A DNA stretch of 64,000 bases. It comes from a virus. This document shows positions 30,182 through 33,689 of the stretch, piece by piece. Where the stretch lies: IMG/VR virus record IMGVR_UViG_3300047554_000303, positions 1 through 64,000 of that record; one strand, written 5' to 3'. Position 1 is the stretch's first letter. Each line of letters opens with the position of its first letter. The notes under the pieces were generated by a model. It saw only the letters and a program-made list of their open reading frames with translations. It did not search any database and was not told the origin of the DNA. A program made the position numbers and the translations under genes.

Positions 30182-30223
30182 GATGGTAGTTTCTCACGAT
30201 TTATAGGGTATTACACTCTAAAG

Positions 30224-30296
30224 TCCCTGCGGTCAGATTCGAACTGACACTTTTACGATTTTAAGTCGCTTGCCTCTACCGTTGGGCTACGCAGGG
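30224..30296 (-). tRNA. tRNA-Leu(UAA) with a short variable loop
   Basis: Acceptor CCCTGCG/CGCAGGG-A, anticodon loop CTTAAAA, T-arm GTCAG-TTCGAAT-CTGAC. Confidence 0.85.
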
Positions 30297-31445: not shown

Positions 31446-31670
31446 TTACTTTACTTCCTCCTCGGCCACATCAACCGATTCAGAAGTGTACCCAGAATAC
31501 TCCAAAGCGCAGAGAGCGTGATACGACACGCTGAAAAACTCTGACGCTTGTGGAAGCAGGTCTAGGACGTAAGCCCCCTCCTTGCCGTAGGTCTGACCCA
31601 AGTATTCCTCTAGAGCTGGACCGAACACCTCTAGGAAACGGCTTGGGGTCATGGCTTTGTTAATGTCCAT
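31446..31670 (-). CDS. Hypothetical protein
   Basis: TAATG coupled to Hsp20. Confidence 0.6.
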   Translation of the reverse strand: MDINKAMTPSRFLEVFGPALEEYLGQTYGKEGAYVLDLLPQASEFFSVSYHALCALEYSGYTSESVDVAEEEVK

Positions 31671-32197
31671 TAGCTAATCTCAATCTGCTTAGGCTTCTTC
31701 TCCTCAGGGAGCTCAAGCTCTAGCTTAATGGTTAGTAGTCCGTCTTCAAGCTTGGCGCTCTTTACCTCAATGTACTCTGCAATAGCAAAGGTAGTGGTGA
31801 AGTTACGCTGAGCGATGCCGTGGTGGATTACCTGACCGTACTGTCCCTCTTCAGGGATGTCGTTGCGGTCTTCGATGTCTGAGCGCACCGTGAGTACACG
31901 GTCCTTTACAAACACCTCTACTTCTTCCTTCTTGAACCCAGCAAGCGCCATGGTGATGGTGTAGCTGTCACCAGACTTAGTTAGGTTGTATGGAGGGAAG
32001 GAAGGCTTGTGCTGTGCTAGCTCTGTAAGGGTGTTGAACACAGAGTCATAGCCGATACCCCAACGGTCAATGTTGGGAAATAGGGAGTAAATAGTGGCAG
32101 GCTTCTGGTCTACTTTAGGTAAAGTTTTGTAAGGCTGCTTGTTTGGGTAGTGGGCATCCTTGTCCCACGGCTGGATTTCAAATGGATTTCTGGACAT
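31670..32197 (-). CDS. hsp20: Small heat-shock protein Hsp20/IbpA family
   Basis: FPPYNL..., ALAGFKKEEV, HHGIAQRNF and AKLEDGLLTI motifs. Confidence 0.92.
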   Translation of the reverse strand: MSRNPFEIQPWDKDAHYPNKQPYKTLPKVDQKPATIYSLFPNIDRWGIGYDSVFNTLTELAQHKPSFPPYNLTKSGDSYTITMALAGFKKEEVEVFVKDRVLTVRSDIEDRNDIPEEGQYGQVIHHGIAQRNFTTTFAIAEYIEVKSAKLEDGLLTIKLELELPEEKKPKQIEIS

Positions 32198-32330
32198 AGT
32201 ATCTCTTTCTAGACGATACGTGCCTCAAGCATCCCTGCCCGAAGCACAGGTTGTGTATGAACACCCAGTTGGCGTGTTCGATAACAGTATACACAACTTT
32301 CAATAAATGGTGTATAAAGTCTGTTTAATG

Positions 32331-32371
32331 AAAATGGGGCCAGACCTGCCGCAGCAATGGGTCTGGCCCCC
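32331..32371 (-). terminator. Terminator closing the RNA cluster
   Basis: GGGGCCAGACC...GGTCTGGCCCC followed by ATTTT. Confidence 0.65.
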
Positions 32372-32558
32372 AGCCGTTAGGTCTTGCGGTTACTCGGATT
32401 GCTCTCTGCATAGCCGTAAACGGGTTTGTTAGTTCTATCTTACAACTTAATCTCTTGCGAGGTGCTGAACAATTACGAACCGCAGGTGTAAGTCTAGGAA
32501 GCAATCCCGTGGTTGGCCTAATGCCTGTAATCAGGTTTAACCAACCAAGTGCGGTTGC
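32372..32558 (-). ncRNA. Unidentified structured RNA 1 (about 190 nt, probable pseudoknot)
   Basis: Helices GGTTGG/CCAACC, GGATTGCT/AGCAATCC, CTTACA/TGTAAG, TGCGGTT/AACCGCA; CTC-GCAA-GAG tetraloop; no ORF. Confidence 0.55.
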
Positions 32559-32562
32559 TTCG

Positions 32563-32630
32563 CACCCCGACTAAGAATCGAACTTAGCAAGACAAGTTTT
32601 GGAGGCTCGTCCGTACCCAGTACTCAAGGC
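32563..32630 (-). tRNA. tRNA-Trp(CCA) with a truncated D-arm
   Basis: GCCTTGA/TCGGGGT-G acceptor, loop CTCCAAA, T-arm CTAAG-TTCGATT-CTTAG, D-arm GTAC-TGG-GTAC. Confidence 0.7.
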
Positions 32631-32687
32631 GTAGTATGACTCAGGGCCCGACTGTTACGTCTGCGGCCCTGAGTGCTCACATTAGTT

Positions 32688-32872
32688 AGTGTAGCAAACC
32701 GAGTGGACTAAGTGTGTAGTTTCCCACACGCCGTGTTCGGCTTTGCCGTGGGCAGTCAGGCGACGAAACCTGAATTACGCCCTCGTCTAGGCCTGCCCTA
32801 TTCCGATACGCACCTCGGAAAAACAGTGTCAGGTTATCTGCAGTTCGCCTGAACGGATATGTGACCTACACC
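32688..32872 (-). ncRNA. Unidentified structured RNA 2 (about 185 nt, multibranch)
   Basis: Closing stem GGTGTAG/CTACACT; GGGCAG/CTGCCC, TTCCGA/TCGGAA, two TCAGG/CCTGA hairpins, GTGTGG-GAAA-CTACAC tetraloop. Confidence 0.55.
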
Positions 32873-32919
32873 AAAAGGGGAAAAGGTGTTATCATGGATA
32901 ACCCCGTCGTTCATACCTT

Positions 32920-33027
32920 TTATTTTACTTCTTTATTGTGGCACCTGCAACTGCAAAGTGCAGTACTGCCCTCACCAGGGCAATTCTTGTGGTCGTTCTC
33001 TGAGCACCATCCAAACATTCCAGTCAC
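32920..33027 (-). CDS. Small Cys/His-rich peptide
   Basis: GWCSENDHKNC...CSCRCH; probable GTG start at 33027. Confidence 0.5.
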   Translation of the reverse strand: MTGMFGWCSENDHKNCPGEGSTALCSCRCHNKEVK

Positions 33028-33043
33028 CTTTACTCCAGACCAC

Positions 33044-33268
33044 TCACTGGTTCTGGAGCCTCTTGATTTCGTCGTTGATGTAGAAGATGGCTTTTTCAAG
33101 GTCTTGGATGTGGGTGTCTTCATTCTTTATACCTGCCCTCCACAGATACTTCATAGCATTACCGATGTTGTAGTTACGGTGGCGTAGCACCGTAATAGCC
33201 TCTACGCCTGAGGGGTCGCTGGTGTAGTGAGGCGGGTGGTTTACCATGTCAGTCACTTCTGCGCTCAT
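33044..33268 (-). CDS. DUF3310 / SaV-like protein
   Basis: DMVNHPPHYT..GVEAI...GNAMKYLWRAGIK...QDLEKAIFY. Confidence 0.88.
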   Translation of the reverse strand: MSAEVTDMVNHPPHYTSDPSGVEAITVLRHRNYNIGNAMKYLWRAGIKNEDTHIQDLEKAIFYINDEIKRLQNQ

Positions 33269-33387
33269 TTGTTAAACGACCACCAAATCAAAGCACGAAC
33301 GGCAAGCCAACCTACGACTAGATAAAGCCAACCGCCATCTAGTGCCCAATCAGTAAACCCAATCATGATGGGTCTCAAGTCAATCAC
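33265..33387 (-). CDS. 40-aa membrane peptide
   Basis: Hand-translated; GTGA and ATGA overlaps on the two sides. Confidence 0.5.
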   Translation of the reverse strand: MIDLRPIMIGFTDWALDGGWLYLVVGWLAVRALIWWSFNK

Positions 33388-33689
33388 TTCTGCTCTCCTT
33401 TGATTAGTGCGATTAGCAACCCTAAGTGGTGCGGGGAAGTGCAGAGGTTTTCTGAATGGTGAGAGCCATCTAATACGCAGTTATGTTTCTCTAGCAGCTT
33501 GATAATGCGCTCTTCAGTGCGCTTCTCTGCCTGAATCTCAGCCCTAGCAATTTTGGTCTCAATCATCGCAATTAGTGCGTGGGGTGCATCTAGCAGGTCA
33601 TTAGCCCAGTGCTCAGCGAGAGCCTTATCCTCAGCTTCAGATAGTTCTGCGTATTCGTCTGAGTGCATCCACTCAAGCCACTTGTTCAT
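33384..33689 (-). CDS. Hypothetical protein (EERIIKLLEK family)
   Basis: Shares EERIIKLLEK and IKGEQK with 47012-47230. Confidence 0.65.
   Translation of the reverse strand: MNKWLEWMHSDEYAELSEAEDKALAEHWANDLLDAPHALIAMIETKIARAEIQAEKRTEERIIKLLEKHNCVLDGSHHSENLCTSPHHLGLLIALIKGEQK

Follow-up and report, generated by a model that had tools for sequence, protein, structure and literature searches.

The window analysed here, a stretch of 64,000 nt, comes from an IMG/VR phage record of 91,620 bp that has direct terminal repeats. Our interest was in positions 32372-32558, a stretch of 187 nt for which the original prediction had proposed a discrete non-coding RNA situated between a tRNA-Trp and a terminator. 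All the genes around it, like the RNA elements, are encoded on the minus strand, with a DUF3310 gene upstream and an Hsp20 gene (31670-32197) downstream. The gap between these two genes is about 720 nt long (723 nt in the query used for blastn) and holds no credible ORF. Within it, the 187 nt are non-coding, as predicted, and are flanked by a compact tRNA-Trp on one side and by a terminator-like hairpin on the other. A small ORF at 32325-32504 (59 aa, TTG start) was considered as a coding sequence and rejected, since the module borders across which it runs do not exist in the near-identical phage L004. Table 1 lists the features of the region.

Table 1. RNA features and cassette limits in the gap between the DUF3310 and Hsp20 genes, in window coordinates
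Feature	Position	Strand	Support
5' structured domain	32682..32916	minus	Identity of 97% to L004 and, over 72 nt, of ~69% to L003; within the 571-nt region of z = -6.0
Repeat-to-repeat span, ACTAAC 32690-32685 (left) to 32433-32428 (right)	32428..32690	minus	Alignment gap in L004
10-bp GC-rich hairpin with 15-nt loop, just 5' of the tRNA and inside the cassette	32639..32674	minus	Read from the sequence
Compact tRNA-Trp (anticodon CCA)	32563..32630	minus	83-91% identical to Acinetobacter phage tRNA-Trp
Module A, extended hairpin	32500..32559	minus	Five distinct homologues (window, L092, L005, L059, L081)
Module B, 64-nt three-way junction	32434..32497	minus	14 distinct sequences (alignment A2, model R1)
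Module S, variant of window and L004, starting CAAAC	32372..32428	minus	S and T follow tRNA 3' ends in seven other loci
Module T, hairpin	32336..32370	minus	Most stem pairs changed on both sides across 9 loci

We compared the predicted fold energy of the region with that of shuffled sequences. The 571-nt non-coding region, folded as the minus-strand RNA, had a z-score of -6.0. The 187 nt alone gave z = -1.3 on the minus (RNA) strand and z = -2.9 on the plus strand. Hence, the energy of the 187 nt is close to chance on the RNA strand, and the case for function must rest on comparison. The 5' structured domain is part of the backbone, is joined directly to module S in L004, and matches no Rfam family. 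A consensus scan found no promoter, and a search for a homologue of the GC-rich hairpin found none elsewhere; this hairpin may be a processing site. On the other side of the region, the Hsp20 leader (32198-32330, minus strand) is 80-91% identical in L002-L004 and contains a GUAUC...GAUAC hairpin, part of which coincides with the Shine-Dalgarno region immediately in front of the ATG. It is conceivable that this hairpin serves the small heat-shock gene as an RNA thermometer.

The tRNA-Trp that had been predicted at the 5' side was borne out by comparison. Using blastn, we found the element in 20 Acinetobacter phage records, including vB_AbaM_phiAbaA1 (KJ628499, Saclayvirus), in which it is annotated as tRNA-Trp. 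Its 68 nt can be folded into a 7-bp acceptor stem, a 4-bp D stem, a CUCCAAA anticodon loop, and a normal T arm. The D arm is non-canonical, with a loop consisting of UGG only and zero residues between the acceptor and D stems. The same 68-nt cloverleaf is common to the window, phiAbaA1, and the metagenomic phage L065; in the alignment of the three, 95% of the cells are paired and 12 of the 21 pairs changed on both sides, a result that 0 of 500 shuffles reached. The phiAbaA1 tRNA-Trp agrees with that of the window in its length, D stem, UGG loop, anticodon loop, and T arm. The window copy differs from it in having a C31.A39 mismatch, and in having CGA in place of the encoded CCA after the 3' end. 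Neither ARAGORN nor the Rfam tRNA model, even at an E-value of 10, called a tRNA at this position, and the single tRNA reported by ARAGORN in the window was a tRNA-Leu (30223-30296). The assignment as a tRNA-Trp of a compact type that is missed by standard finders, made from the aligned sequences, holds. Several Acinetobacter phage records in GenBank carry this type without annotating it: in most of the records H1-H15 the element is not labelled as a tRNA, and its site is given as a hypothetical protein, as GroES, or not at all. According to blastn, the Acinetobacter phages are without the downstream modules.

We searched databases for known RNA families in the region. At the gathering score, Rfam 15 cmscan returned only the tRNA-Leu from the window, and only tRNA and tmRNA from 14 related loci. 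At an E-value of 10, positions 31500-33500 yielded two chance matches located elsewhere, and five B-bearing loci yielded nothing over B. Across the window and 19 related loci, no family was found for A, B, S, or T at either threshold, in agreement with the earlier statement that the RNA could not be matched to any family. When the whole 723-nt gap was searched by blastn against 50,697 phage records, the tRNA-Trp was the sole match.

Relatives of the locus were collected via the Hsp20 protein, and their comparison revealed a mosaic. In the near-identical phage L004, Hsp20 is 90% identical and the flanks are 97% identical to the window, and a 257-nt cassette (window 32690-32434), made up of one repeat copy and the intervening sequence, is cleanly missing, leaving a single AGTAAC at the junction. 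The cassette is present in the window and in L070. It contains the GC-rich hairpin, the tRNA-Trp, module A, and module B, and thereby the first 125 nt of the 187; L003 has a tRNA-Asn at the cassette site. The last 57 nt of the 187, together with the terminator hairpin, belong to the backbone that is common to L004, L003, and L002. The order of modules also varies: L005 has tRNA-Asn, S-T, B, and A; L075 has S-T-B; L081 has S-T-A; in L065, tRNA-Trp-S-T is separated from B by about 150 nt; and the order is altered in L059 as well. Because the modules are separately present or absent and occur in permuted orders, the 187 nt are, judged by comparative sequence analysis, three separately conserved RNA modules lying side by side (A, B, and S, then hairpin T) and not one RNA. 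Modules A, B, and S each have their own closing helix, with 0-5 nt between neighbours. Cassettes are exchanged among related phages at short junctions, namely N73-CAAAC and ACTAAC.

Every helix listed in the original prediction is present in the sequence, and several of them fall into modules in which the pairing is maintained. This applies to GGTTGG/CCAACC with its inner CCTG/CAGG in module A. This module consists of an outer helix GCAA-CCG/CGG-UUGC, followed by UGGUUGG/CCAACCA and then CCUG-AUUA-CAGG. Among its homologues, 97% of the positions are paired and 3 pairs of the two inner helices changed on both sides, and in the minimum free energy (MFE) structure A is closed locally. The outer helix varies by lineage, from GCAA-CCG/CGG-UUGC in the window to UGCACC/GGUGCA in L005, L059, and L081. 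In L092, module A replaces the variable region of a tRNA-like molecule whose acceptor stem contains G3.U70.

In seven other loci, modules S and T come directly after the 3' end of a tRNA, the junction reading N73-CAAACAG. Of 9 sequences, 8 show covariation in the closing helix of S; the copy in the window has diverged, is gapped there, and has a different closing helix, likely CCGUU/AACGG, which would compete with the predicted local CCGT/ACGG hairpin. Module T has a covarying 10-bp stem and a conserved apical part, CC-CWUUGCUGCGGCAGG-U. The terminator hairpin that had been predicted at the 3' side corresponds to this GC-rich element, which is followed by the U-rich tract AUUUUCAUU. The tract is present after the T stem in the window and L003, and six relatives have no U tract. 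A terminator scan did not call T, because its apical part is too large for the loop rule of the scan. Since T is followed here by AUUUUCAUU, it probably doubles as a terminator in this phage.

Copies of module B were gathered with exact-match core patterns from viral, metagenome, and genome collections. We obtained 14 distinct copies, all of which are located in phage tRNA/tmRNA clusters on the tRNA strand. Helix P1 comprises columns 6-11/54-59 (CUUACA/UGUAAG) and continues with C13-G52 and U14-A51; it has a bulged A5 and an outer G4-C60, which is G.A in the window. P1a is an irregular hairpin with the strands GC-R-G-UU-CG/UG-UU-C-R-GC, which form G15-C34, C16-G33, R17.R32, G18-C31, two U.U, C21-G28, and G22.U27. 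P2 has the form CUC-GNRA-GAG. The CTTACA/TGTAAG stem and the CUC-GCAA-GAG hairpin had both been predicted, and both carry compensatory changes in the homologues. Overall, 96% of the positions are paired and 6 pairs of P1 and P2 changed on both sides; 0 of 500 shuffles reached this, and slid registers scored far below. RNAalifold produced the same helices from the alignment, and the G.U pairs are compatible with the tRNA strand only. Columns 17 and 32 combine G and A in 9 sequences and A and G in the other 5, on different flank backgrounds, and no further combination occurs, which suggests a direct non-canonical contact between the two positions.

In seven phages, the core of B is 93-96% identical, as against 73% for the tRNA-Asn genes and 73% for the P1 stem of B itself. 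The family is small and the search patterns were derived from the core, so that the invariance of the core is partly due to ascertainment; half-core patterns used alone recovered the same set of copies with the other half intact. Model R1 found exactly one copy in each of the 5 whole phage records searched, two complete genomes among them, and no weaker copies were found. A search with looser patterns for divergent members gave chance matches only, which scored at most 22 bits with R1 compared with 78-91 bits for true members. An exact-pattern scan of the genomes of 185,579 prokaryotic species returned a single chance match and no copy in cells or prophages. A literature search with the sequence string of the core also gave no match. 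B is a well-supported new RNA family as judged from its alignment, one that matches no Rfam family and is without a described relative. It is dispensable, being missing from L004.

Likenesses of B to ribosomal and transfer RNA were considered and set aside. One was to the 3' end of 16S rRNA (CCUGCGGUU...CACCUC), and was rejected because the CUC belongs to a covarying stem (it reads CCA and CCC in L057 and L075) and the leading C varies. The others were to the GUAAUA loop of the 23S GTPase centre and to the tRNA T-loop, and extend over only 6-9 nt. Phage tmRNAs with the tag ANSRSAFALAA are located shortly downstream of B at L052:630-977, L073:1458-1799, and L068:9017-9339 (minus strand).

The 5' edge of B lies 1 nt past the discriminator of a tRNA or tRNA-like gene in 6 loci and 5 nt past it in 3; the remaining 5 loci, the window and L005, L059, L065, and L075, have no directly preceding tRNA. 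The junction reads N73-C-G-A-CUUACA, with B one base past the discriminator, in L051, L052, L054, L068, and L073, and in some other loci B likewise starts after a tRNA-like 3' end.

We consider it probable that the 187 nt form the 3' part of a tRNA-island transcript of about 580 nt, made by a lytic phage, and that A, B, and S (with T) are self-folding, separately inherited modules that would be cut out of it as small RNAs. The closed modules, the cassette exchange, the site on the tRNA strand, the abutment to tRNA 3' ends, and the single-copy B fit small-RNA genes in a tRNA operon. The module borders, helices, covariation, genomic context, and copy number were observed, and transcription as one unit, excision, and any function in trans are inferred. 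The modules behave like tRNA genes, each with its own terminal helix, arranged end to end and shuffled as cassettes. Host enzymes would excise the tRNA-Trp, RNase P by cutting at its 5' end and either RNase Z or RNase E by cutting behind the discriminator, and the same cuts would free the neighbouring modules as small stable RNAs. Because B occurs once per record searched and has a near-invariant core that is single-stranded or non-canonically paired, it would be a small-RNA gene in its own right, probably acting in trans via a protein or another ligand. The original prediction of a discrete non-coding RNA released by tRNA 3' processing thus survives in part: the stretch is structured and lies on the tRNA strand, and release is plausible given that B starts one base past the discriminator in six other phages, but in place of one RNA of about 190 nt there are three modules with separate histories and closing helices.

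There are precedents for small or structured RNAs in such places. T4 produces the small RNAs RNAC and RNAD, whose roles are unknown, from its tRNA region (PMC3014915, PMC9697503), and the proposed processing of the modules from a tRNA region would parallel this case. Like RNAC and RNAD, the modules are non-tRNA elements inside a phage tRNA cluster and on the same strand; the T4 RNAs are longer, and blastn of our region against the 50,697 phage records had matched the tRNA-Trp only. GOLLD and ROOL are large phage RNAs found near tRNA islands, and GOLLD can hold a tRNA in a variable linker (PMC12286853). The predicted transcript of about 580 nt resembles them in having a tRNA inside and in being near a tRNA island. 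It differs in that there is no match to their models at an E-value of 10, and in that its modules are permuted and individually present or absent among phages, at odds with one large RNA of fixed architecture. The spacers of phage tRNA islands are usually annotated as meaningless, and those of one lineage hold conserved, covarying RNA modules that are exchanged as cassettes. Module B joins the unexplained phage RNAs near tRNA islands, along with T4 RNAC/RNAD, GOLLD, ROOL, and theta ribozymes.

Going beyond a small-RNA gene, we offer as a tentative idea, to which we assign a minor chance, that B represents a new functional RNA class among phage tRNAs, either as a new fold of self-cleaving ribozyme by which tRNA 3' ends are trimmed or as a decoy or sponge for a host factor. 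A decoy would be aimed at a tRNA-targeting defence nuclease or at a processing enzyme, and the irregular P1a, with its G.A and tandem U.U, would together with the GNRA hairpin provide the recognition surface. Being held more constant than the tRNAs and having no described relative, B is a testable candidate for a new ribozyme or protein-binding RNA.

Taken by itself, the proposal that B is a new small self-cleaving ribozyme that cuts at its own 5' edge, and so makes the 3' end of the upstream tRNA, appears unlikely to us. It was suggested by the theta ribozymes, minimal HDV-like ribozymes of gut phages with a cleavage site at phage tRNA 3' ends; the adjacent tRNAs are mostly without an encoded CCA, and a phage CCA-adding enzyme is enriched in theta phages (Kienbeck et al. 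2024, PMC10879173). The genomic context of B resembles theirs. Both are small (about 55-65 nt), occur in Caudoviricetes on the tRNA strand, and often abut the 3' end of a CCA-less tRNA, with about half of the copies adjacent to a tRNA and the rest isolated; in the six loci in which B starts one base past the discriminator, the tRNA is followed by CGA and not CCA. A three-way junction of 64 nt with a near-invariant core would also suit a ribozyme. However, the topology backed by covariation, in which P1 closes the 5' and 3' ends around two internal hairpins, is unlike the nested double pseudoknot of HDV, where an internal strand pairs with the P1 5' strand at the cleavage site and P4, J4/2, and the P2 3' strand come next. 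An HDV-like fold for B was rejected for this reason, and pairing in the alternative register, GACUUA/UAAGUU, is interrupted in L050 and L053. B also has no G1.U wobble at the cleavage site and no identifiable J4/2 cytosine, and it matches no HDV-type or other ribozyme family in Rfam, even at an E-value of 10. Each phage record searched has a single copy, although the arrays hold many tRNAs, and in five loci no tRNA directly precedes B. Finally, the B-bearing phages come from environmental metagenomes and not from the gut, and no phage CCA-adding enzyme was present or enriched, unlike in theta phages.

Alternatively, the modules could be cis-acting parts of the tRNA operon, such as folding insulators, RNase sites, or a terminator, with no function after tRNA excision. 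This would explain that they always lie between tRNAs and on the tRNA strand, that a U-rich tract follows T here and in L003, and that the A/B cassette is dispensable, as L004 demonstrates. We nevertheless doubt it: about 40 nt of non-helical sequence are better conserved than the tRNAs next to them, which a passive spacer would not be; B is present once per genome in the records searched, yet a processing signal of general use would be repeated along the array; and T is without a U tract in most relatives.

The least probable explanation, which we regard as very improbable, is a single RNA of about 190 nt in which UGCGGUU pairs alternately with two copies of AACCGCA and which is held together by GGAUUGCU/AGCAAUCC, because its helices cross the borders of modules that are found apart in other phages. 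The crossing pairing of TGCGGTT with AACCGCA had been taken to suggest a pseudoknot or switch. This phage does have both pairings, UGCGGUU is paired with the 3' copy of AACCGCA in the MFE structure, chance is unlikely to place two exact 7-mer partners inside 100 nt, and further copies of AACCGCA are located in the flank 5' of A in L092 and close to B in L005. However, UGCRGUU lies inside the conserved P1a hairpin of B, and in the 13 other loci no complementary partner occurs over several hundred nt around B. In L005, AACCGCA is present 70 nt upstream, but B reads UGCAGUU, leaving a C.A mismatch, and the loci with UGCAGUU have no compensating AACUGCA. The crossing pairing is therefore specific to this phage and not conserved. 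The predicted helix GGATTGCT/AGCAATCC, which joins A to S, fares no better, as L004 lacks the 5' strand and has AGAAATCC at the 3' strand. In the window, GGAUUGCU is part of the closing helix of A, and S contains AGCAAUCC along with the 3' copy of AACCGCA; S of L004 reads AGAAAUCC and has no partner. These long-range pairings may form in this one phage, but to judge from its relatives they are not what selection maintained. We return to the separately inherited modules as the preferred reading.

The related loci contain further elements. Several tRNA-like elements (L092:95-215 and L068:9635-9720 on the minus strand, L051:1974-2042, L054:5271-5337, and L059:3997-4064) have a proper acceptor stem, with G3.U70 in L092 and L068, and a T arm, and their body is replaced or expanded. 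Extra conserved modules between tRNAs are present at L005:3357-3550, L059:4292-4480, and L081:8150-8040 (minus strand). They include a hairpin around GCGUAUGCGAA that is closed by UAGUCC/GGACUA-type stems, and a block of about 110 nt with GGUAACUGGAAGCACUCCAGG and GGUGCAAAUCC. In these phages, the extra modules and S, T, B, and A jointly occupy 400-470 nt between tRNAs, where they might be parts of one larger RNA.
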